NCBI GenBank assembly: GCA_013001805.1
Contig: JABDLW010000473.1
Coordinates: 1 to 36,590 of the forward strand
Length of the DNA: 36,590 nucleotides
Source: Saprospiraceae bacterium
GTDB taxonomy: Bacteria > Bacteroidota > Bacteroidia > Chitinophagales > Saprospiraceae
Reading direction: 5' to 3'
Part shown: positions 532-11,320 of the stretch, one piece after another
Layout of the letters: every line of letters starts with the position of its first letter
Numbering within the stretch: position 1 is the first letter of the stretch
The notes under the pieces: generated by a model
The model's input: only the letters and a program-made list of their open reading frames with translations
Databases searched by the model: none
What the model was told of the DNA's origin: nothing
Made by a program: the position numbers and the translations under genes

Positions 532-1026
532 ATGTCCGTTACGCATTCAGTGGTGATCACTTTTTTCACACTAGTGACTCTATCCCTACAGTCTCAAGAA
601 TCTTTACCCGATGCTAATATCCAAACCCTTGAGCGAAAAACGATGAGTTTTAAAGATGCAGTAGCTGGTGATCAAGTGACGATTGTTAGTTTTTGGGCAA
701 CCTGGTGTGCCCCGTGTAAAAAGGAACTGGATGCAATCGCCGAAGTATACGAAGATTGGCAGGAGCAGTACAATGTACGCCTGATTGCAATCTCTGTTGA
801 TGATGCCCGTGCATCGGCGAAGGTAAAACCAATGGTGGCCGAAAAAGGTTGGCCCTATCAGGTATTCATTGACACCAAACAGGAACTCATGCGTAGCCTG
901 CACTTTCAGACAGTACCTTATACCATCGTGATAGATCAGACAGGTAAAATCGTTTACAATCATTCGGGTTACCTTCCAGGAGATGAGATCGAATTGGAAG
1001 AAGAATTGGCATTGCTGGTCAAATAG
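532..1026 (+). CDS. TlpA/ResA-like periplasmic thiol-disulfide oxidoreductase (thioredoxin fold)
   Basis: 164-aa ORF with an N-terminal hydrophobic signal. It has a WCAPC active-site motif (FWATWCAPCKKE) and a downstream TVPYTIVID cis-Pro loop typical of AhpC/TSA-TlpA family redoxins. Confidence 0.9.
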   Translation: MSVTHSVVITFFTLVTLSLQSQESLPDANIQTLERKTMSFKDAVAGDQVTIVSFWATWCAPCKKELDAIAEVYEDWQEQYNVRLIAISVDDARASAKVKPMVAEKGWPYQVFIDTKQELMRSLHFQTVPYTIVIDQTGKIVYNHSGYLPGDEIELEEELALLVK

Positions 1027-1123: not shown

Positions 1124-1288
1124 AAAAAAAGCTCCGAAAATCTGACATTTTCGGAGCTTTGGTTTGAGTAATGTTACGTTAAAGCCTTATTTAACTTAAG
1201 TATCAAAATCTAAAAAAGGGATCACAATTTTGATATTGTAAAGTTAAACGACCCTATCCGTTTTTAAAACCCCATATTGATGGGGTCC
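1124..1288. repeat. Copy 1 of a ~160-nt structured repeat unit (hairpins H1-H4); candidate small RNA gene or terminator cassette
   Basis: H1 at 1131-1157 is GCTCCGAAAAT-ctgac-ATTTTCGGAGC. H2 at 1178-1195 is GTTAAA-gcctta-TTTAAC. H3 at 1201-1235 is TATCAAAAT-17 nt-ATTTTGATA. H4 at 1270-1285 is CCCCAT-attg-ATGGGG. The same order and almost the same sequence recur at 1487 and 1680. Confidence 0.85.
1131..1166 (+). terminator. Possible intrinsic terminator for the TlpA-like gene (hairpin H1 of repeat copy 1)
   Basis: An 11-bp perfect stem is followed on the + strand by TTTGGTTTG, about 105 nt after the stop at 1026. The same hairpin has a better T7 tract on the minus strand, so strand assignment is ambiguous. 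Confidence 0.35.
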
Positions 1289-1486
1289 TAAATATGGTCA
1301 CTTAGATCACCAAGTATTTGTTTTTAGGTTAAGCGGTAGATGATAATTTGCTCAAGCTATGGTTGGTAAGGGAAGATCAGGTCTTAGTGCATTAGCCCTT
1401 AGACCATTCATTCCAAGCATAACTAATGCATCATTTGACAATTGAAAATCAATAGATTCCCATCAGCTGTAATCGCCGGGTAAAAC

Positions 1487-1649
1487 AAAAAAGCTCCGAA
1501 AATTTGCACTTTCGGAGCTCAGGTTTGAGTGTGTGTTACGTTAAAGCCTTATTTAACTTAAAATATCAAAATGAAAAAAGGATCACTATTTTGATAATCT
1601 AAAGGTAAGAAGCATATCTCTCAAAAAAAACCCCATATTGATGGGGTCC
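1487..1649. repeat. Copy 2 of the structured repeat unit
   Basis: It reads aaaaaaGCTCCGAAA..TTTCGGAGC, then GTTAAAgccttaTTTAAC, then TATCAAAAT..ATTTTGATA, a variable block, and aaaaaaaaCCCCATattgATGGGGtcc. It is collinear with copy 1. Differences are concentrated in the loops and in the H3-H4 linker. Confidence 0.85.
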
Positions 1650-1679
1650 TTACAGCACTGATTGGAAGTTCTATCAAAT

Positions 1680-1836
1680 AAAAAAGCTCCGAAAATTTGC
1701 ACTTTCGGAGCCTTTTTTGAGTGTGTGTTACGTTAAAGCCTCATTTAACTTAAATATCAAAATCAAAAAGGATCATTTTTTTGATACTATAAAGATAAGT
1801 GGTGGTGTCCACTTGCGAAACCACATCTTGATGGGG
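1680..1836. repeat. Copy 3 of the structured repeat unit (3' hairpin degenerate)
   Basis: It has the same H1, H2 (loop gcctca) and H3. H4 has degraded to CCACATcttgATGGGG with one stem mismatch. It starts only about 30 nt after copy 2. Confidence 0.8.
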
Positions 1837-2176: not shown

Positions 2177-2815
2177 TTAGATATCCCCATCCACAGATAG
2201 CTTTATGAGCTCGGCTTTACTGTTGATTTGAAGTTTCTTATAAATCTTCTTAATGTGATCGCGCACTGTCTCAATTGAAACCAAATACTTATCTGCAATC
2301 ATTTTATAGCTCAATCCATCCACCAGTCCAGCTACAATCTGCTGCTGCCTGGGTGTGAGTAGTTCTTTTTTTGAATTGTCGGAGGGTGAGAAATAGGTAA
2401 CAACCTTCCTGGCAATGGAGGGAGACATGTAAGATCCACCATTGTGGACCACCGTAATCGCTTCGAGAATTTGTGACAAGGAGGAGCGTTTGCTCAGGTA
2501 AGAACAAGCACCCGCACATAAAGCCTTAAAAATGACTTCAGACTCCTCATAGGTAGTAAGCATAATGATGTCCGTGTCACTCATAATCTTCTTAATGACC
2601 CGAATTCCCTCCAGTCCTGACATTCCGGGCAAGCCAATATCAAGTAGCAGTACATCCGGCGCCTGGCTCGATCCTTCCGCATAAAACTCCTGAAAGTCCT
2701 CCAAAGATTTGACCTGACAAACCACTTCCAGGTTTGGCTGATCTTCAAAGAAAGTCACTAAACTCTCCCGTACAATCGGTTCATCCTCTACTATGCCTAC
2801 TGCAATACTTTTCAT
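2177..2815 (-). CDS. NarL/LuxR-type response regulator (REC + HTH_LuxR)
   Basis: The sequence shows MKSIAVGIVEDEP..., VLLLDIGLPGMSG (phospho-acceptor Asp), and a C-terminal LTPRQQQIVAGLVDGLSYKMIADKYLVSIETVRDHIKKIYKKL helix-turn-helix. I use the ATG at 2815, not the ORF-track start at 2854. The 13 extra codons (MAQIVISYLYFYK) look non-native. Confidence 0.9.
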   Translation of the reverse strand: MKSIAVGIVEDEPIVRESLVTFFEDQPNLEVVCQVKSLEDFQEFYAEGSSQAPDVLLLDIGLPGMSGLEGIRVIKKIMSDTDIIMLTTYEESEVIFKALCAGACSYLSKRSSLSQILEAITVVHNGGSYMSPSIARKVVTYFSPSDNSKKELLTPRQQQIVAGLVDGLSYKMIADKYLVSIETVRDHIKKIYKKLQINSKAELIKLSVDGDI

Positions 2816-2868
2816 TTTATAAAAATACAAGTAACTAATTACAATTTGTGCCACATCATAATGGGGTA

Positions 2869-5800
2869 TTACTTCATGGCTTTCATCCTTAGCGAGATCT
2901 TAAATCCATCGTCCTTATTAATGGAAAAATCAGCATGAATGTTTTTGGCTCTCATTTCCATATTCTTGAGCCCGGACCCGTTTAAGGAAGATTTCTGACC
3001 ATTAATGGACACACCCGATCCGTCATCTGTGATTATCATTTCCAGGTGTGAGCCCTCACGGTTGAGATAAATATTCACTTTCGTTGCACTCGAATGTTTT
3101 GCGACATTGGTAATTGCTTCTTTGAAAATCAGATACAAATTCTGTCGAACCTGGACCGGCAGTTTTTTATCCGGAAGAATACCTTTTACATGAAACTGAT
3201 AAGAAATTCCTCCTGAAAAAAGCATTTCAGCAGCATGTTCTTTCATCCGCACCAACAGGTCTTCAAATCGATCTTTACGAGCATCTGTGGCCCAGATTAC
3301 ATCACGCATTTGAGCCATGGCATTACGGCTCATATCACTTATCCGTTTTAATTTGGGTTTATCTTTTTCCGATGCCGTGTATTCCAGAAGTTCAGTTTGC
3401 ATGGCTAATCCTGACAACAACCCACCTACATCATCGTGTAAATCGCTGGATATTTTTGTTCTTAGGCGTTCCATCTCAATGACCTGTTTCAAGCTAATGC
3501 GATGAAACAAATAGATTGTCAGCAATACTAGACTGACACACATGACAATAAACCAACTCTTTTTATAAAAATATTGGTTCACTTTTATGGGCAGGGCAAA
3601 TTCTCTATTACTAACATTCAAATTACGGTCCGCGCCGATGATCCTTAGGACATAATTTCCGGAAGGCAAATTATTAAACCGGATTTCATTTTGCGTGCCA
3701 ATCCAGGTCCAGTCAATATCGCGCCCTTCCAGCTTATATTTGAATTGATTTTCTTGTGGATATGCGTAATCAGCAAGGGCCACCGTGCAATGAAAGTACC
3801 GGTTTGAGGCGGGCAAAACTACTTCCTTCACTTCCTGCAAATTGTGCAGGTGATCCACAATTCCGCCTTGTATCTTGTCATAATAAGACAGTTCGGATAG
3901 TAGTATTGGTGCGTCCAGGTTCCGTTCCAGCAATTCATTTGGGTTAAATAAATTGAGTCCGTTTATCCCACCACAAATAAAATCTCCCTGGTTGTCATTT
4001 ATAAAGGAATACCGACTGAATTCAAGCTGACTGAATCCATCTGCGGTGCTAAAATTCCGGAAGGAACGCAACTCGGTATTAAAGTAAGAAAGTCCATTGT
4101 CAGTACTAAACCACATCGCACCATTGTCATCCTCGAGGATGCCAAAAACATTGTTACCTGCCAAACCATCGCGGGTGTCATAATAGATAAATCCATCGAC
4201 CTCGTGCGCTGGGTCCAAGACGTTGACACCCCCATCAGTCCCAATCCAAATCCGGTTTTTGCTGTCCTCATGGATACAAAAAATCAGATTACTGCTAATG
4301 CCATAATAGTCGTTTTCAGAAAACTCGAAACGATTGGCCTTACCAACTTTAGGAACCTTCAACAATCCACTTTTCGTTCCAATCCATTTAGTCTCGTCAG
4401 AGCTTTCATAAAGTACGGTTGGCTCCAAACCTTTTAATGGGTTGGTGCCATCTGGTAAAAAGAAGTGATGGAAGGTACCTACCTCACCTTTATAGTAGGA
4501 CAATCTGCTTTCTTCTTTCGGATGGGTTGATACGAACCACAACCTATTGTCACGGCCCAGTATCATACTCTGTATCTTTTGCGGGAAATGATATACATCA
4601 AATGTCTGATCGTATGCATTCATTGCCAACAGATCCGTTTTATTTCTGTCGCTATATCGCGTTCCCCACACCAATCCATTCGTGTCATAGACCAGCTCCC
4701 GTGAGCAATCACAGTACGCAGCTTTTTTATCAAGAGTTGTACTTAAGTCAATTTCCTGAATTGCTGTCCGGTCGGCATCAAGCTGGTACCAATGGTTGTC
4801 TGAATCGGTAAGGACAATAGAATTGTCCGGGAGGGCTACGATCCCCCTAATGCTTTTACCTGGTTGTTCATTCGTGGCATTTAGGAACTTTTTTACCCTT
4901 TTTTTGGTCCGGGTTATTTTAATAACACCATTAGTGGTTCCTACAAATATCACACGCTCAAAATCATCGCTGAACACTTCCGTGACATCATTATAAGATT
5001 TGCTCAGTAGGTACATCCTCTGCACAGCATCATCTGCCGAAACTAAAAAAACCGGAGTCTGCGTTTTACCTCTGGCCCTGGGTTGAAAAATCACATTGCC
5101 CAATGCATCCTCCCAAATATTCTGATAATGTTGCGGATCAATCTCTAGTTGAAAGGGAGTGAAATAGCCGGCAGCTTCATTAAATTCCCACAGTCCCTCG
5201 GTGTTTTCAAAACTCATCCAGATTCTACCTAGTCTATCCTGATAAAGAATTTTCGTAAGACCAGCATCACTGCCAATACCCAGAGAATCGTATGTGGAGA
5301 CGGACTGAACATAACCATTCGTATCAGCCAAGATCAAGCCCATTTTACTATCGTGCAGCATTGCAAGGCCGCGATCCAGCATCAGCAAGTTGTAGTTTGA
5401 TGCAGCACTGTATTTAATACCATGAAAGGCAAACAAACTATCAAATTGCAGTGAGTCATTCAATCTTTGCACGATGAGGCTGGAATCTACACTTACGAGT
5501 GCATAAAGTTCACCTTGTCTCTGATCTAGTACCAGGCGATGTACCCGGTCAAGAATGCCATTTTCACGATTGAGAAATAATTTCTGTGCCTGGGTGGACG
5601 ATGTACCCAGGACATCCACAAAACGACGATTGGCATCGTATTGAATGATGAGTGATCCATCCTTCCTACATAGAATCTTCTGAATGTCTTTGTTACTGAT
5701 ATGGGTGGTACTGCCAGGTCGCCGGTCGTAATTTACGATTTCAAGTCCATCGTAACGGTTTAACCCATTACGGGTTGCAATCCAAATATACCCGTAAGGA

Positions 5801-6040: not shown

Positions 6041-8140
6041 CTATTGCTGGCTCAGCATATCTTTCATGATATTTAAAACCTCCTCAATATAAAGGTCTCT
6101 GCTGACACCTTTAATAAAGTCTTCGTTATTGGCTTTTCGAGTCTCGTCCTTTTCAATCTTTGTAATTTCAGCTTCCAAATTCCTTACCAAGAGAGGTGCA
6201 TCAGATTTATACATGTCTTCGAACCTGGCACTTTGTTTTTCTCTCCGTTCGTACTCTTCTGAATAACCTTCCAAGTTGAGTGCATATTTCATTTTTTCCT
6301 CTTCCTGTGCCTTGAGGAGTTGTGCTCTTTCCTCAATTAGCTGAAACTTTGGATTTGTGTTAACTCGCTCTTTACTCGAACTGGCGAGCAGCTGACGATC
6401 TGGCAAGACCATGATCCGTTGCTTATGATCTACCGGTTCAATTTCACTCCAGGCAAGGGGGGTATCCAGATCTTTTTCACCTGCATTAATATAGTTATAC
6501 GGTGACGGTAAAACGATGTCCGGTATGACTCCCTTTAATTGAGTGGAACCACCGTTGACCCGATAAAACTTTTGCGTAGTAATCTTGACTTCACCTAAAG
6601 GTTTGAGGTCATTATTTCCGACAATAAAGCGGTCCAGCTCGTGAAACCTCTGCACCGTTCCCTTCCCAAAAGTTGAACTACCTCCCACAATTATAGCCCG
6701 ATTGTAGTCTTGTAGAGCAGCAGCAATGATCTCTGATGCACTGGCACTAAAGTGATTGACCAATACAATTAGTGGACCCTGATATTGCACTGCAGGATCT
6801 TCATCTTCCAACACATAGGGTTTACGTTCCCGCGATTTTACCTGGACGATTGGTCCCTTATCGATAAACAAGCCACTCATGTCAACAACTTCGGAGAGGG
6901 AACCTCCTCCGTTATTCCTCAGATCAAGTATGATACCCTGAGCACCTTCTTGCACCAGTTTATTCACTTCAGTCTCAATATCTTCAGCACAGCCTGGCTT
7001 ATTATCTTGCTCAAAATAAAATTTCGGAAGTCTGATGTATCCAATCTCCGCTCCCTGCTCCTCCGTTCGGATCAGCAATGATTTTGCCCGCCCTTCTTCC
7101 AGTACCACTTGATCCCTTATTATGACGATCTCCCTTTCTGTGTCATCAGATTTTCTTACTGTCAATATGACTTTAGTGCCCTTCTTGCCACGGATCAAAC
7201 CAATTACATCATCCTGCCGCCAGCCCCTCACGTCTTTAGCTTCTTCGCCTTCCTGGGCTACTTTTATAATAAAATCATTTGCCTCCAAGTCTTTTTGTTT
7301 CCATGCCGGTCCGCCTGGAATTACTTCAGTTACTTTTGTTAACTCGCCTTCCGGCATCAGACGTGCTCCAATACCTTCATAACTGCCGTTCATGTTAAGG
7401 TCAAAATTCTCCTTTTCACGGGGACTGAAATAATTGGAATGCGGGTCATATGCATTGGTAATCGCATTGAGATAATCTTCAAATCGATCTGATCTCCTCA
7501 AACTTTTCAAACGTTTAAACCATTCATCGAAATTTTCGGAAATATTTTCTCTTGCTTCTTTGATCAAAGTCGACTCATCTTTCATCTCCTCATCTTCTGA
7601 CTGAGCAATTTTCAAACCGTGTACTTTCACCACGGTCTCATACTGTATGAGTTTGCGCCAATATTCGCGAAGATCTTCATCATTTTTAGCAAAACCTCGA
7701 TCATCTGAGTTGATGATGAGAGAGTCAGGTGAAGCATGGATGTCAAAATCCTGTGCCATACTTTCACGATAAAAGACCCCCGATTTGCTTATGCCCCCGG
7801 CAATCAATTTTTCTGCCAGATCAAAAAAGTCAAACGAACGGTTAGATATTTGGTCGTCTATCTGTAACTCATATGGGGTCAAAAGATCGATGTCTGCCTG
7901 CGTGAGAAACCTCTTAGCCGGATCAATGGACTGGAGAAAACTTTTGTAAACATGTTTAGATAGCTCATCATCAAGTGACTTGGGCTTATAGTGTACCCGA
8001 TCCATAAACTGAATGACTGCTTGTAGCGTAAAAAACTCTTTTTTAGCCTGATCTGATTCTCCCACTCTATGCGACTTGAGAAAAATTCCAGCCAACGCAA
8101 TCATTAAGATTAGAGAACTTCTGAGCACCATACTTCCCAT
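6041..8140 (-). CDS. Carboxy-terminal processing (tail-specific) peptidase, family S41
   Basis: 699 aa with an N-terminal signal. It has a PDZ-like segment (YEGIGARL...GGPA). The catalytic region VNHFSASASEIIAAALQDYNRAIIVGGSSTFGKGTVQ carries the Ser and Lys dyad motifs of S41 peptidases. Confidence 0.9.
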   Translation of the reverse strand: MGSMVLRSSLILMIALAGIFLKSHRVGESDQAKKEFFTLQAVIQFMDRVHYKPKSLDDELSKHVYKSFLQSIDPAKRFLTQADIDLLTPYELQIDDQISNRSFDFFDLAEKLIAGGISKSGVFYRESMAQDFDIHASPDSLIINSDDRGFAKNDEDLREYWRKLIQYETVVKVHGLKIAQSEDEEMKDESTLIKEARENISENFDEWFKRLKSLRRSDRFEDYLNAITNAYDPHSNYFSPREKENFDLNMNGSYEGIGARLMPEGELTKVTEVIPGGPAWKQKDLEANDFIIKVAQEGEEAKDVRGWRQDDVIGLIRGKKGTKVILTVRKSDDTEREIVIIRDQVVLEEGRAKSLLIRTEEQGAEIGYIRLPKFYFEQDNKPGCAEDIETEVNKLVQEGAQGIILDLRNNGGGSLSEVVDMSGLFIDKGPIVQVKSRERKPYVLEDEDPAVQYQGPLIVLVNHFSASASEIIAAALQDYNRAIIVGGSSTFGKGTVQRFHELDRFIVGNNDLKPLGEVKITTQKFYRVNGGSTQLKGVIPDIVLPSPYNYINAGEKDLDTPLAWSEIEPVDHKQRIMVLPDRQLLASSSKERVNTNPKFQLIEERAQLLKAQEEEKMKYALNLEGYSEEYERREKQSARFEDMYKSDAPLLVRNLEAEITKIEKDETRKANNEDFIKGVSRDLYIEEVLNIMKDMLSQQ

Positions 8141-8273
8141 TATTTTAGGTTGTCGAACTAGTGAATACTTACTAAATATACCTGTTTTTGCCTGAAAATG
8201 TTTCAGCCAAACTAAGTTAAGGCAGTTTTTAACTAAATACTAACGCATCAAGGGTGATTCATCTTGTGCCGGC

Positions 8274-8307
8274 AAAAAAAATGCCCAGTTTTGAATAAAC
8301 CGGGCAT
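8274..8307 (-). terminator. Rho-independent terminator of the pyrophosphatase gene
   Basis: The minus strand reads ATGCCCGGTTT-attca-AAACTGGGCAT (11-bp stem with one G-U pair) followed by T8. It starts about 25 nt after the stop at 8332-8334. Confidence 0.65.
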
Positions 8308-8331
8308 TTTAATCTTTCTGGAGGGTAATTC

Positions 8332-10545
8332 TTATAGAAAAGGAGCAATAACCAAGGCCACGACAGACATAAGTTTTAGCAAAATATTCAAAGATGGCCC
8401 CGACGTATCTTTAAAAGGATCTCCCACGGTATCACCGACTACGGTCGCTTTATGGGCATCAGATCCTTTTTCAAATCGATGACCGTCAATTTCAACACCT
8501 TCTTCAAACATCTTCTTGGCATTGTCCCAGGCGCCTCCTGCATTTGATTGGAAGATGGCCATCAAGACACCACATACAGTAACTCCGGCCAACAAGCCCC
8601 CAAGCATTTCGGGTCCCATGCTGCTGCCGAAAATTTTAGGCCCAAAACCAATCAGAACGGGAGAAAGAACCGCAATCATGCCTGGCACCACCATTTCACG
8701 TATAGATGCTTTGGTCGATATTTCTACGCATTTTCCATATTCAGCTTTTCCGTCAGCGGCATCAAAAGTATCCTGATCGGCTTTACTCCAATTCTTAAAA
8801 TCTTTGCCGTCGTTGGTACGCATGACAGCGAGTGCTTTATTTAGTTCAGGGATAGATTTGAATTGTCGTCTGACTTCATTTATCATATCCATGGCCGCTC
8901 TACCCACTGCATTCATGGCAAGAGCTGAAAACAAAAATGGTAGCATACCACCAATAAACAAACCTGCTAATACGATGGGTTTGGAGATGTCAATACCAGG
9001 TATTCCGGTGATAGTCATATAAGCGGCAAACAATGCTAATGCGGTTAGAGCAGCACTTCCAATGGCAAACCCTTTTCCAATTGCTGCAGTCGTGTTACCC
9101 ACTGCGTCCAATTTGTCGGTACGTTGTCGCACTTCCTTGGGCAGGTCACTCATTTCCGCGATTCCTCCGGCGTTGTCAGAAATAGGCCCATAAGCATCAA
9201 CTGCCAGTTGGATGCCCGTATTTGACAACATACCCACGGCTGCTATAGCGATACCATATAACCCCGCAAAATGGTGCGCACCTATGATCGCCGTCGCTAA
9301 GATTAAGATTGGGATAGCTGTAGATTGCATCCCTACTCCAAGTCCGGCAATGATATTGGTGGCTGCTCCAGTCAGGGACTGTTTTACAATTGACAAAACC
9401 GGTTTGGTCCCGGTTCCGGTATAAAATTCGGTTATCATGCCGATTCCGACACCGGCTACCAAGCCAATAATCACTGCCCAAAATACTCCTGTTCTCGATA
9501 TTTCCTTGCCGGCAAAAACCCATCCTTCCGGCAACATCCACTGCACGATAAAATAGGTTGCAACAAGCATCAGACCTGCAGAAATAAACTCTCCGGTATT
9601 CAAGGCTGCCTGCGGATTTCCACCTTCCCTTACACGTACGAAGAAAGTACCGATTATGGATGTGATAATCCCAGTTCCCGCCAATACGAGAGGCAAGATT
9701 ACAGCGGATAGATTGTTAAAACCATCAGACCAATTCTGACCATTTACCATAGCTGCGGTGTCCCCATTGCCATTCATCGCAATAAATGCGGCGCCCAAAA
9801 TCATGGTACCTATGATCGATCCAACATACGATTCAAATAAATCGGCTCCCATTCCGGCCACATCACCCACATTGTCACCAACATTGTCGGCGATAGTTGC
9901 AGGGTTTAAGGGATGGTCTTCCGGAATTCCAGCTTCTACTTTACCGACCAGGTCGGCACCAACATCCGCTGCCTTGGTGTAGATTCCTCCACCTACACGG
10001 GCAAAAAGTGCTATAGAAGAGGCACCAAAGGAAAATCCAGTCAGGACATTAATCACCTTGTTGATATCCCATGCCATATTGTTGTAAATTATGAACAACA
10101 ATCCCAGGCCCAAAACTCCAAGGCCAACCACTCCCAGACCCATCACAGATCCTCCGGCAAAGGCTACTTCCAAGCCCTTACCCAAACTGGTTCGCGCCGC
10201 ATTGGTTGTACGCACGTTCGCTTTGGTGGCTACCCGCATTCCGAGAAAACCCGCCAGTGCAGAACATATGGCTCCGAAGATGAACGACACGGCGATCAAT
10301 GGGTGGGACGCTTCGTCTGAACCACCGCTAATGAATAGTAGAATCGCCACGATACCCACAAAGATTGAGAGAACCTGATACTCGCTTCTCAGGAACGCCA
10401 TGGCACCGTCAGCGATGTTGGCGGCTATGCGTTTCATTCGATCGGTACCGGCGTCCTGCCTCGACACCCAGGCTGATCGCCAAAAAGTGAATAGCAATGC
10501 CACTACCCCAAGTATCGGGATCACGTAAGTGATTGATTGACCCAT
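8332..10545 (-). CDS. hppA: Membrane-integral K+-dependent-type H+/Na+-translocating pyrophosphatase
   Basis: 737 aa and polytopic. It has the signature motifs [20 protein letters not shown] and [20 protein letters not shown]. The [16 protein letters not shown] segment has Ala, not Lys, at the position that distinguishes K+-dependent from K+-independent enzymes. Confidence 0.95.
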
Positions 10546-10612
10546 AAACTTAATAATTAATACAGTTGAAAAATGAACATCAATTGATGCCCCAAAATTG
10601 AATTTCGGTCGG

Positions 10613-10644
10613 CAAAAGTACAGTTAATTTGCGTTTTGACCAAT
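10613..10644 (-). promoter_or_regulatory. Candidate Bacteroidota-type promoter for hppA
   Basis: The minus strand has TACTTTTG at 10620-10613, an exact match to the TAnnTTTG -7 consensus. A TTG lies 20 nt upstream (10643-10641). The motif sits about 68 nt upstream of the ATG at 10545. Confidence 0.4.
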
Positions 10645-10723
10645 TTTTGGATCAATACAAAATCTGAGGTATCGACGTCAGTCTCAATTCATTTAGAATG
10701 CCGTTTTCCAACCGGTGATTTCC

Positions 10724-11320
10724 TCACTCCATCCATTTTACTTTTTCTTGCCAGGGAGATCGATTTGGTTCTGACTTAGAGGGATGATAAAAACCCAGGT
10801 AAAACAATCCCAGGCATCTCTCATTATCTTTGAGGTTTAGGAAAGCGCCAAGATCGCTGGCTGCTGCGGGACTACTCCAATATCCACCGATTCCTAAAGC
10901 CGATGCGGCCAACCATAAATTTTGCACGGCGCAGGCTGTCGCCGCCAGTTCTTCCCACTCCGGGATCGCATTTTGCTGATCCACATGGAGACAGATAGCA
11001 ATAATAGCCGATGCTTTGAGAGGATTAGCCAGGATCTTCTTCCGTTTTTTTTCCAACTTTTGCCCTGATGGCGTGTGTTGGTCATAATAGGCTAAAAGAC
11101 TGGTGGCGAGTGCTTTTCTACTTTCACCCCGCATGACGACAAAGCGCCAGGGTTGGGTCAGTTTGTGCGTTGGCGCCCAGTTTGCCGCTTCCAGGATTTT
11201 CTCAATGTCCGCTCTGGGTACCATTTCATCAGTAAAGGCGGGAGGGAAAATGGCGCGGCGGTCCTTTAAGTTTGCCAGGATATATTGCCACCCTTCTTTT
11301 CTTCGATCGCTTTTATTCAT
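10724..11320 (-). CDS. Nitroreductase-family NAD(P)H-flavin oxidoreductase
   Basis: 198 aa. RRAIFPPAFTDEMVPRADIEKILEAANWAPTHKLTQPWRFVV is the typical nitroreductase N-terminal RRS/T...AP(S/T)..N.QPW pattern. Confidence 0.85.
   Translation of the reverse strand: MNKSDRRKEGWQYILANLKDRRAIFPPAFTDEMVPRADIEKILEAANWAPTHKLTQPWRFVVMRGESRKALATSLLAYYDQHTPSGQKLEKKRKKILANPLKASAIIAICLHVDQQNAIPEWEELAATACAVQNLWLAASALGIGGYWSSPAAASDLGAFLNLKDNERCLGLFYLGFYHPSKSEPNRSPWQEKVKWME

Follow-up and report, generated by a model that had tools for sequence, protein, structure and literature searches.

The window analysed here, a 36,590-nt stretch of DNA from a Saprospiraceae bacterium (GenBank assembly GCA_013001805.1, contig JABDLW010000473.1), encodes a sensor histidine kinase, a NarL/FixJ-type response regulator and a TlpA-like thiol-disulfide oxidoreductase, and contains an array of repeated units between the regulator gene and the TlpA-like gene (Table 1). 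Members of the Saprospiraceae are plentiful as degraders both in activated sludge and in marine sediments, and the majority are uncultured. To our knowledge, post-transcriptional regulation in the Bacteroidota is almost undescribed beyond the gut Bacteroides.

Table 1 Positions of the genes, predicted small RNAs and putative promoter modules in the window.
Feature	Position	Strand	Details and basis
TlpA-like thiol-disulfide oxidoreductase gene	532..1026	+	Pfam, tblastn synteny; convergent with the array and its conserved far border
Predicted sRNA-A copy 1, ~110 nt	1125..1235	-	Covariance-model match 118.2 bits, terminator scan, fold; H1 terminator 1160-1128, then T7
Copy 1 promoter	1239..1285	-	Box 1285-1270 = CCCCATCAATATGGGG; spacer 1269-1247; -7 box 1246-1239 = TAACTTTA
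Predicted sRNA-A copy 2, ~109 nt	1487..1596	-	Covariance-model match 120.3 bits, terminator scan, fold; H3 1596-1564; H2 1557-1540; linker GUAACA...ACUCAAAC; H1 terminator 1520-1491, then T6
Copy 2 promoter	1600..1646	-	Box 1646-1631 = CCCCATCAATATGGGG; spacer 1630-1608; -7 box 1607-1600 = TACCTTTA
Predicted sRNA-A copy 3, ~106 nt	1680..1786	-	Covariance-model match 120.1 bits, folding z -4.4; order H3, H2, linker, H1 terminator (~1717-1686), T6; transcription start predicted
Copy 3 promoter (nearest the regulator gene)	1790..1836	-	Pattern match, module in 44/44 homologous copies; palindromic box (H4) 1836-1821 = CCCCATCAAGATGTGG; 23-nt spacer 1820-1798; -7 box 1797-1790 = TATCTTTA
NarL/FixJ-type response regulator gene	2177..2815	-	Pfam, NCBIfam; receiver domain and GerE/LuxR helix-turn-helix
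Promoter module before the response-regulator gene	2820..2866	-	Box 2866-2851 = CCCCATTATGATGTGG; 23-nt spacer; -7 box 2827-2820 = TATTTTTA
Sensor histidine kinase gene, 1041 aa	2869..5994	-	Pfam: Reg_prop beta-propeller repeats, Y_Y_Y, HisKA_3, HATPase_c

Repeat units and their distribution

Comparison of the copies with one another bore out the three collinear direct units, each of ~165 nt, that a first-pass annotation had placed at 1124-1288, 1487-1649 and 1680-1836. Copy 2 is 89% identical to copy 3 and 82% identical to copy 1. The four inverted repeats (H1 to H4), their order and their irregular spacing were found as that annotation had described, as were the block of ~23-34 nt that is unrelated between copies and the minus-strand T-runs following H1 (T7, T6 and T6) and H4 (T4, T8 and T3). 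Each window copy folds far better than its shuffled counterparts (z ~-4.5), with none of 200 shuffles equally good. The earlier statement that no plausible peptide is encoded holds, as no ORF is conserved on comparison of the three copies. A peptide or RiPP precursor was considered and rejected: copies 1 and 2 have stop codons within the 40-aa plus-strand ORF of copy 3, and the minus strand has no ORF that the copies conserve. Positions 1840-2180, which separate the regulator gene and the array, are unique, a homologue being found neither in relatives nor elsewhere in the genome.

A covariance model of the RNA body (R1) recovered 44 homologous copies of the unit, spread over some 20 genome bins and contigs of Saprospiraceae; the genomes are all metagenome bins of uncultured organisms. 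Arrays contain two to seven copies, depending on the genome, and the gene order kinase, regulator, array and convergent TlpA-like gene is kept wherever the contig permits. In one locus (L182) an insert of ~3 kb lies inside the array. Weak matches to the model in three further genomes (G187, G190 and G053) were discarded, having neither palindrome, -7 box nor H2. Partial BLAST matches to unit positions 70-100 occur in many Saprospiraceae genomes in which R1 finds no unit, and we regard them as fortuitous similarity to the AT-rich sequence around start codons.

A putative promoter module

The palindrome that had been designated H4 lies upstream of the RNA body in all 44 copies. A Bacteroidota -7 box (TAnnTTTA/G or nAnnTT) follows exactly 23 nt past it in 40 of them. 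R1 has no positions for box or spacer; one of its eight training rows reached into the -7 box. Information per column over the 44 copies is 1.73 bits in the palindromic box and 1.52 bits in the -7 box, as against 0.14 bits in the spacer between them. At -33, 35 of the 44 copies have TTT, the consensus G being mostly absent. Promoters of the Bacteroidota have the consensus TAnnTTTG at -7 and TTTG at -33 (PMC7366714); the -7 box at one fixed position and the TTT at -33 are those of a promoter for sigma-A (sigma-ABfr). The module is rare, with about 5-7 sites per genome compared with 0-3 for a reversed control pattern. It is also found, with the same palindrome, 23-nt distance and -7 box, before an unrelated, conserved and terminator-ended RNA on another contig (sRNA-B) in all seven of the seven genomes checked.

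Judged from these comparisons, H4 (CCCCAT-N4-ATGGGG) is neither a terminator nor part of the RNA but a palindrome in the DNA that lies upstream of a putative promoter, and the variable block is the spacer of that promoter, invariant in length, not a variable domain of the RNA. The first-pass annotation had made H4 a minus-strand terminator that brackets the unit at one end. An intrinsic terminator consists of a GC-rich hairpin directly followed by a U-tract of about five or more. Immediately past H4, nine copies have a T-run of 1 nt, 25 one of 3 nt, six one of 4 nt and four one of at least 6 nt, so that it is no longer than 4 nt in 40 of 44. The short T-runs, together with the fixed 23 nt to the -7 box and the recurrence of the palindrome before the regulator's ATG and the unrelated sRNA, argue against a terminator. 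With H4 and the variable block reassigned to the promoter, the transcript of roughly 130 nt with four hairpins that had been proposed becomes a predicted one of ~105-110 nt with three. The spacer of a promoter can thus have the look of a variable domain of an RNA. A promoter on the plus strand was also considered and rejected; the TTTG-bearing octamers there match TAnnTTTG poorly and H4 is not followed by a plus-strand terminator.

The predicted RNA body

The RNA sense is predicted to be the minus strand, with the start of the sRNA-A transcript inferred from the -7 box and the position of the regulator's ATG. The 5' hairpin H3 would be followed by H2 (GUUAAA-URAGGC-UUUAAC), the sequence of which never varies, a linker that is conserved and single-stranded (GUAACA..ACUCAAAC), and the H1 terminator with its U-tract. 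The 60 nt from H3 to H1 are more than 90% conserved and not palindromic. Compensatory changes, for which the first-pass annotation had proposed a search, were found in a model-free alignment at nine of 13 pairs of H1, in which 98% of cells are paired, but at just two of seven pairs of H3, and H2 is invariant. The covariation of H3 is modest, and RNAalifold on the same alignment calls H1 alone; the alternative given in the first-pass annotation, H3 as a site for protein binding, may apply. H3 is preserved in L182 with both arms changed and in L087 with a different loop. In the model-fitted alignment, wobble G-U pairs exceed A-C mismatches in H1 (66 versus 10) and in H3 (33 versus 13), an excess that points to an RNA made from the minus strand.

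H1 combines a hairpin, a U-tract and compensatory changes, as expected of an intrinsic terminator. A terminator scan flags it in each of the three window copies. For copies 1 and 2 the flagged strand is the minus strand; for copy 3 it is the plus strand only, because the stem is palindromic. These features support the earlier proposal of a family of paralogous minus-strand small-RNA genes, as read from the sequence.

No Rfam 15 family reached its threshold on either strand of the locus. The best match was His_leader (RF00514), which with 35.1 bits falls short of its threshold of 49; FopS (RF04319) scores 18.6 against 56. The matches are driven by the terminator. The sRNA-B locus gave no Rfam match whatever. 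None of the RNA runs searched for the units of the window contains them. Four metatranscriptome runs searched with the array of a relative yielded one matching contig, from sludge, which spans the terminator into the next box and may reflect DNA carry-over or read-through.

The adjacent two-component system

The promoter module lies directly before the regulator's ATG in six of 15 loci (the window, L061, L062, L123, L126 and L145), with the ATG 4-6 nt past the -7 box. In the window the box begins 2 nt past the kinase stop codon. Its -7 box is followed after 4 nt by the ATG at 2815, from which an autoregulated and leaderless, or nearly leaderless, regulator mRNA is predicted. Upstream of the regulator gene the box is missing from eight of the 15 loci, and in one more (L124) it is degenerate.

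Regulator orthologues of at least 76% identity occur in exactly the seven of 401 Saprospiraceae genomes that have sRNA-A (7/7 versus 0/394). The next-best matches are of at most 65% identity, and no array was found downstream of the five inspected. The latter, paralogues of ~60% identity from other genera, were set aside as relatives of the system; in four of the five the regulator gene precedes the kinase gene. Within the system the regulator is better conserved than the kinase (76-94% versus 42-81% identity). It scores below the cut-off of the UvrY/GacA family (110 bits versus 280). On the grounds of adjacency, co-occurrence and the autoregulatory copy of the module, the NarL-type regulator is the presumed binder of the box. 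The link that had been suggested between the units and the adjacent kinase/regulator pair thus finds support in the recurrence of the module and in the co-occurrence, both properties of sequence.

A candidate target of sRNA-A

BLAST of the unit against the whole 5.3-Mb assembly, a check for dispersal proposed in the first-pass annotation, returned, besides the three window units, just a fragment of 34 nt in antisense orientation on contig C38 (genome-wide E-value 5.6e-6). The fragment belongs to the gene of a conserved coiled-coil membrane protein. The 5' UTR of this gene, ~55 nt long and reaching to the start codon, is a collinear antisense counterpart of the core of sRNA-A. The site ranks sixth among the 5572 translation-initiation regions of its own genome. 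Duplexes of sRNA-A with such leaders have predicted energies of -34 to -40 kcal/mol, against -14.5 +/- 3.3 kcal/mol for shuffled sequences. The UTR motif is kept before orthologues in eight genomes, and the complementarity beats shuffles in seven of 11, being marginal in two (G136 and G405) and absent from two (G213 and G401). This gene is the best candidate target of sRNA-A in sequence searches, and the complementarity could also stem from shared ancestry of the two sequences, not from regulation. Two conserved neighbours, the TlpA-like gene and an OMP-like gene that follows sRNA-B, were rejected as targets for their unremarkable ranks (2407 and 2956 of 5572, respectively). For sRNA-B, a search of its own genome gave no significant antisense partner.

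Alternative explanations

Several other readings of the array have to be weighed. The most serious keeps promoter and sRNA and has the palindrome read by a transcription factor other than the adjacent regulator, which would fit the loci in which the regulator gene has no intact box and the many helix-turn-helix regulators that Bacteroidota genomes encode. We hold it to be unlikely given the perfect co-occurrence of the regulator orthogroup with sRNA-A, their constant adjacency, the far better conservation of the regulator than of the kinase, and a 7-4-7 palindrome that suits a dimeric GerE/LuxR-type helix-turn-helix protein. The anatomy proposed at first, an RNA of ~130 nt with four hairpins, limited by H4 and H1 as terminators and with the variable block as a copy-specific functional segment, is very unlikely. 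Copy 2 of the window does have T8 after H4, a hairpin of 6-7 bp is possible there, and sRNA paralogues with variable segments in conserved scaffolds are known. Against these stand the T-run of at most 3 nt in 34 of 44 copies, the fixed length and low information of a block that ends at a conserved TAnnTTTA at a set distance, and the recurrence of H4 just past the kinase stop codon and before a different RNA; the units would, moreover, be left without a promoter.

A purely DNA-level role, in which the array consists of regulator sites or operators (H4, H3) that might titrate the regulator or insulate the convergent genes, draws on the weak covariation of H3, its absence from H2 and the lack of expression evidence among the RNA runs inspected. 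It is very improbable in view of the strong, covarying terminator that ends each unit, the strand-specific excess of G-U pairs, the fixed -7 box, the conserved non-palindromic stretch between H3 and H1, and a second conserved, terminator-ended element behind the same promoter. Also highly improbable is an origin of the RNAs from the 3' UTR of the kinase/regulator operon by processing of read-through transcripts, an option that the first-pass annotation had left standing. In G136 the first box lies 9 nt past the regulator stop codon with no terminator between, so that this unit is probably reached by operon read-through as well. The units nevertheless carry their own -7 box in 40 of 44 copies, each later unit comes after the strong H1 terminator of a preceding one, and in the window ~340 nt of unrelated sequence lie between the first unit and the regulator gene. 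In L182 the regulator-proximal unit is inverted and faces the regulator gene convergently, yet it retains palindrome, -7 box and terminator. Finally, a mobile or dispersed repeat of the MITE or REP kind, to which tandem copies in varying number might point, can practically be dismissed. Such repeats occupy many unrelated loci, whereas the unit is confined to one syntenic locus in every genome, lacks unit-spanning terminal inverted repeats and target-site duplications, and varies in copy number in a manner compatible with local tandem duplication.

Proposed circuit

The explanation that we consider probable as a whole comprises three independently transcribed minus-strand sRNA-A genes, a palindrome bound by the regulator and sRNAs that act by base pairing. 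Each gene would begin with a palindrome of 16-18 bp, (A)CCCCAT-N4-ATGGGG(T), centred at about -43 and usually with TTT at -33, followed by a spacer free in sequence but fixed in length, which puts 23 nt between palindrome and -7 box, and the sigma-A -7 box TAnnTTTA/G. The kinase, through its periplasmic beta-propeller/Y_Y_Y sensor, would phosphorylate the NarL-type regulator, a dimer of which would act on the palindrome as a class-II-like activator. All copies of sRNA-A and the unlinked sRNA-B would thereby be turned on, as would, in about half of the genomes, the regulator's own gene from an internal promoter giving the (near-)leaderless mRNA. The sRNAs would work post-transcriptionally through base pairing, and pairing of sRNA-A with the C38-type 5' UTR up to the start codon may block initiation of translation.

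The locus thus presents, from sequence alone, a complete and testable circuit of kinase, NarL-type regulator, DNA box, sRNAs and candidate target, including two putative new sRNA families, each a candidate for Rfam, and a predicted autoregulated regulator mRNA. A box at a fixed distance to a sigma-A -7 box would be a rare example of an activator-dependent promoter grammar in this phylum.

The identified module sites would drive sRNA-A copies, sRNA-B or the regulator, any given genome having no more than one or two others, and three core blocks of sRNA-A are collinearly antisense to the whole leader of the C38 gene. A tentative extension, which we think more probably wrong than right, is that the two-component system acts almost only through base-pairing sRNAs and that sRNA-A arose when the 5' leader of its target gene was duplicated in inverted orientation. 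If true, this would be wiring of the Gac/Rsm kind in a phylum that lacks CsrA, with base-pairing RNAs instead. An origin by inverted duplication of the target is well known for plant microRNAs; we know of hardly any documented case in bacteria.

Comparison with known systems

Most likely, sRNA-A is a new family, matching none in Rfam 15, of an already known kind, the multicopy small RNAs controlled by a regulator. Its two to seven paralogues per genome, each with a predicted promoter and terminator of its own, are a feature shared with the LhrC, Qrr and OmrA/B kind. The only multicopy sRNA family described in the same phylum is FopS/GibS of Bacteroides (RF04319) (PMC11697453), which shares with sRNA-A promoters of the sigma-A type and an intrinsic terminator, and which represses translation at start-codon regions. 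FopS copies, in contrast, are scattered over the genome, 14 in each, with a single-stranded 5' seed and a terminator as their only parts, and two-component control is not described for them; at the 18.6 bits given above, the window units fall short of the FopS gathering score of 56 and are not members.

The GacS/GacA systems (UvrY, LetA) activate sRNA genes that have a conserved palindromic upstream activating sequence (PMC2375449; PMC4132741, discussion), and the number of Rsm/Csr sRNA genes varies by duplication (PMC7911923). A NarL/FixJ-family regulator with sRNA genes as its main direct targets (RsmX/Y/Z or CsrB/C) is the proposed point of likeness. The Gac RNAs, however, sequester CsrA/RsmA by many GGA loops, whereas sRNA-A has no repeated GGA loops, and the kinase here, with its Reg_prop/Y_Y_Y sensor, is not GacS-like. 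CsrA (PF02599) was not found in four genomes of this genus, and was detected in positive-control genomes. A role as CsrA sponge was rejected on this ground and because the consensus has GGA solely inside the terminator stem.

OmrA/OmrB (EnvZ-OmpR) and Qrr1-5 (LuxO) are adjacent or multiple paralogous sRNAs co-activated by one response regulator, as is proposed here, and have conserved cores and redundant or additive base pairing. They differ from sRNA-A in belonging to another phylum (Proteobacteria), in depending on Hfq and in using other sigma factors and promoters (sigma-54 for Qrr), and there is no relation in sequence.

LhrC1-5 of Listeria monocytogenes are multicopy sRNAs under the LisRK two-component system (PMC4132741). 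Like sRNA-A as proposed here, they are several paralogous RNAs of ~110 nt, with several of the copies clustered, and each has its own terminator and a promoter bearing a conserved regulator-responsive element. They pair near the start codons of mRNAs for envelope proteins, to which the mode proposed for sRNA-A may be likened. The two families show no similarity in sequence or structure. The dependence of all LhrC copies on one response regulator has been demonstrated by experiment, while that of sRNA-A is predicted. LisR is a regulator of the OmpR type with its responsive element upstream of -53, whereas here the regulator is of the NarL type and the palindrome abuts the -33 element of a putative sigma-A promoter.

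Results

A repeated unit confined to one locus

The three units carry four inverted repeats (H1–H4, named in plus-strand order). The first-pass annotation is confirmed on these repeats and their order, on the irregular spacing of the copies and on the block separating H3 from H4, which is unrelated between copies. Copy 2 is 89% identical to copy 3 and 82% identical to copy 1. BLAST searches of the own assembly (5.3 Mb, 910 contigs, 85% complete) returned only this locus and one 34-nt antisense fragment on contig C38, so the unit is locus-specific and not a dispersed repeat. No plausible peptide is encoded, as had been stated: there is no conserved ORF, and a 40-aa plus-strand ORF in copy 3 is broken in copies 1 and 2. 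Searches of Rfam with both strands of the locus revealed no family at threshold, the best being His_leader (35 bits versus 49).

Among 401 genomes of the family, BLAST and R1, a covariance model of the RNA body, limited the unit to a few genera. The holders found in an exact-pattern scan of named genomes all belong to Saprospiraceae and were all binned from sludge, sediment and sand metagenomes; a few extra unit-bearing contigs came from a metagenome scan. Gene order is constant wherever the contig is long enough: sensor histidine kinase, NarL/FixJ-type regulator, an array of 2–7 units and a convergent TlpA-like redoxin gene. Across loci the regulator is 76–94% identical and the kinase only 42–81%. 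Two neighbours, the TlpA-like gene and a protease gene that precedes the kinase gene, hint at a two-component system concerned with the cell envelope.

The largest array (seven units) lies on the OZ244968 chromosome (L145, 4290–6477), where four of the internal units, nearly identical repeats of ~370 nt, have two palindromes in tandem and a -7 region of unusual form, CCGGTTTG. In the window, an ORF-poor segment of ~340 nt (1840–2180) separates the regulator stop codon from the first unit. Nothing homologous to this segment occurs elsewhere in the own genome or in relatives, where the gap is 9–80 nt.

Features of the array, the adjacent two-component genes and the related loci
Feature	Location	Strand	Description
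Unit copies 1, 2 and 3	1124–1288, 1487–1649, 1680–1836		each ~165 nt, collinear
H3 (RNA)			5' hairpin, UAUCAAAAU...AUUUUGAUA; loop often GUGAUCC; short linker follows
H2 (RNA)			GUUAAA-URAGGC-UUUAAC
Conserved single-stranded segment	between H2 and H1		GUAACA..ACUCAAAC
H1 and U-tract (RNA)	3' end of predicted sRNA-A (terminator)		consensus
Regulator-gene module	2813–2866 (box 2866–2851)	minus	box 2 nt past kinase stop codon; 23-nt spacer; TATTTTTA
NarL/FixJ-type regulator			212 aa; receiver and GerE domains
Sensor kinase			~1030 aa; Reg_prop, Y_Y_Y, HisKA_3, HATPase_c
Tail-specific (S41, Prc/Tsp-type) periplasmic protease gene	6041–8140	minus	directly upstream of kinase gene
sRNA-B locus	own genome (G000) contig C147, ~3300–3499	minus	also L112, L114, L107, L105, L098, L147, L148
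Coiled-coil membrane-protein gene leader	own genome (G000) contig C38, ~914–975	minus	also L060, L150, L151, L164–L168

A predicted promoter module in each unit

The sequence upstream of every R1 match was aligned. R1 was built on the RNA body alone: neither box nor spacer is represented in it, and just one of its eight training rows reached into the -7 box. The box, the spacer and nearly all of the -7 box are hence independent of the model. H4 is the palindrome (A)CCCCAT-N4-ATGGGG(T), present in 44/44 copies, and the octamer TAnnTTTA/G lies exactly 23 nt past it in 40; the other four, internal repeats of one array, have CCGGTTTG instead. The palindrome carries 1.73 bits of information per column and the octamer 1.52, as against 0.14 for spacer positions 4–23. 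Such a pattern, in which two conserved boxes are kept at a constant distance while the sequence between them varies freely, is characteristic of a promoter spacer. The consensus of the Bacteroidota primary sigma factor is TAnnTTTG at -7 with TTTG near -33 (PMC7366714); here three T following the palindrome occupy the -33 position.

H4 had been taken for a terminator-like hairpin and the variable block for part of the RNA. The former is rejected, as the T-run behind the palindrome is mostly too short (3 nt in 25/44 copies, at least 6 nt in only four), and the latter has the fixed length and near-random composition of the spacer. We read H4 as a DNA site upstream of the promoter, with its centre near -43, and the block as promoter spacer; the comparative evidence for this predicted module is solid. 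In several genomes the TlpA-proximal unit is divergent or degenerate (L119 ~1501–1700 in genome G281, L141:634–750, L134:683–799, L137:199–319), retaining box and spacing, with an RNA body of only 36–41 bits and an altered H2.

The predicted sRNA-A

The RNA, sRNA-A, is predicted to start a few nucleotides past the -7 box and to be ~105–110 nt long, with three hairpins (H3, H2 and H1) rather than the four proposed. The folding z-score is ~-4.5 for each window copy. For counts of covariation, 35 copies were aligned in MAFFT without recourse to the model. Conservation of the stems by compensatory change is strong for H1 (9/13 pairs, 98% of cells paired), which is also the only call made by RNAalifold on this alignment, and weaker for H3 (2/7 pairs, 90% paired, G-U pairs plentiful), while H2 is invariant and so gives no evidence for or against its pairing. 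Counts on the model-fitted alignment are higher (H3, 8/9 pairs; H1, 10/14). There, G-U pairs exceed A-C mismatches in both H1 (66 versus 10) and H3 (33 versus 13), an asymmetry that fits an RNA made from the minus strand. H3 is retained in divergent copies, with both arms changed in the metagenome contig L182 (GUUGAAA/UUUCAAC) and a different loop in L087.

The window units were not found in any RNA run searched. A relative's array gave one match among metatranscriptome contigs, of 151 nt from a sludge run, spanning the 3' part of a unit, the terminator and then the next box; it is uninformative on 5' ends and could be read-through or DNA.

The module at other sites: a proposed small regulon

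The pattern sought in seven genomes was the palindrome followed by T, any 22 bases and TAnnTT, at most two mismatches being allowed; it gave ~5–7 sites per genome versus 0–3 for a reversed control pattern. Besides the sRNA-A copies, two sites recur, one before the regulator gene and one at an unlinked locus. The regulator ATG is 4 nt behind the -7 box in the window, and a module with ATG 4–6 nt past the -7 box is found at 6 of 15 loci, with a degenerate box in a seventh. This arrangement predicts positive autoregulation from an internal promoter giving a (near-)leaderless mRNA, and the gene is probably autoregulated. The distance also calibrates the transcription start assumed for the sRNA units.

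At the unlinked locus the module precedes, in 7/7 genomes checked, a different conserved element, named sRNA-B (CUCAUYRUAAUCAAAUUUUGUUGUAAGGGUGAAUGGGCGCC...GGCGCUUAUUUUUU), which ends in a terminator with a compensatory change and has no match in Rfam. Downstream of it lies a conserved ORF of 189 aa, whose product starts with a signal-peptide-like segment, ends in Phe and belongs to neither a Pfam nor an NCBIfam family. A further module (perfect palindrome, spacer, TAACTT) is present in genome G136 (C24:153542–153586, L097) with nothing resembling sRNA-A or sRNA-B downstream, and may mark an extra regulon member.

A probable link with the neighbouring regulator

Regulator orthologues of at least 76% identity occur in exactly the 7 of 401 family genomes that have sRNA-A; the next-best matches are at most 65% identical. 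The array downstream of the regulator gene is absent from all five of the latter genomes inspected, and in four of these a kinase gene is directly behind the regulator gene, the reverse of the window order. We infer that the adjacent regulator is most likely the protein that binds the box, since it always adjoins the array, a copy of the box precedes its own gene, the 7-4-7 palindrome suits a dimeric GerE-type helix-turn-helix protein, and it is far better conserved than the kinase.

The units had been suggested to be either 3'-UTR-derived or regulator-controlled sRNA paralogues. In L182 the unit nearest to the regulator gene has the opposite orientation, which makes the two convergent, and is flanked by a ~85-nt direct repeat (7148–7633). 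Some ~3 kb of other genes, with unrelated ORFs of 278 and 548 aa, lie between it and the TlpA-proximal unit (7385–10864); both units retain box, 23-nt spacer, -7 box and terminator. An inverted unit with a full module argues against a purely 3'-UTR-derived origin, and sequence comparison bears out regulator-linked paralogues on the minus strand. In genomes such as G136, where the first box is just 9 nt past the regulator stop codon, the first unit is likely to be reached by operon read-through as well.

Discussion

The predicted circuit, read from sequence, would work like the LisRK-dependent multicopy LhrC1-5 sRNAs of Listeria (PMC4132741), OmrA/B under EnvZ-OmpR and Qrr1-5 under LuxO. At promoter level it resembles GacA-type systems, in which a NarL-family regulator works mainly via sRNA genes behind a palindromic upstream site (PMC2375449; PMC4132741 discussion). 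sRNA-A lies outside the RNA families of all of these. It is also not a member of FopS/GibS, the sole multicopy sRNA family described in Bacteroidota (PMC11697453), the FopS score of the units in Rfam being 18.6 versus a threshold of 56. A literature search for Saprospiraceae, small RNA and two-component systems found nothing. The predicted sRNA-A is a new sRNA family, with sRNA-B a second under the same putative control, in a kind of regulation already known.

A Csr/Rsm-type sponge is excluded: the CsrA gene is absent from four genomes of the genus, in a search that did detect its positive controls, and sRNA-A is without repeated GGA loops. The conserved neighbours (TlpA-like and OMP-like genes) have no notable complementarity to sRNA-A.

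The single non-self match in the own genome (E = 5.6e-6), antisense to the RNA strand, immediately precedes a gene whose product is a coiled-coil protein of ~320 aa; a hydrophobic helix is predicted at the N-terminus of this protein, and no family assignment is informative. The ~55-nt leader of the gene has three blocks in order, CUUGAGU, AAAGCCUUAUU and AUAACUUAAAAUAUCAAAAU. Their antisense counterparts in sRNA-A are, in turn, the ACUCAAA linker, the loop region of H2, and the 3' arm of H3 together with a linker. Duplex energies are -34 to -40 kcal/mol versus -14.5 ± 3.3 for dinucleotide shuffles, and the site ranks 6th among 5572 translation-initiation regions of the own genome. The motif is conserved upstream of orthologues in eight genomes. 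When each genome's own sRNA-A is paired with the leader, 7 of 11 genomes do better than shuffles, whereas G136 and G405 are marginal cases and G213 and G401 show no pairing. Pairing across leader and start codon may repress translation, a good lead that we hold tentatively; shared ancestry of sRNA-A and the leader by inverted duplication would also explain the complementarity and is compatible with such regulation. The leader is either a candidate target of sRNA-A or its evolutionary source.
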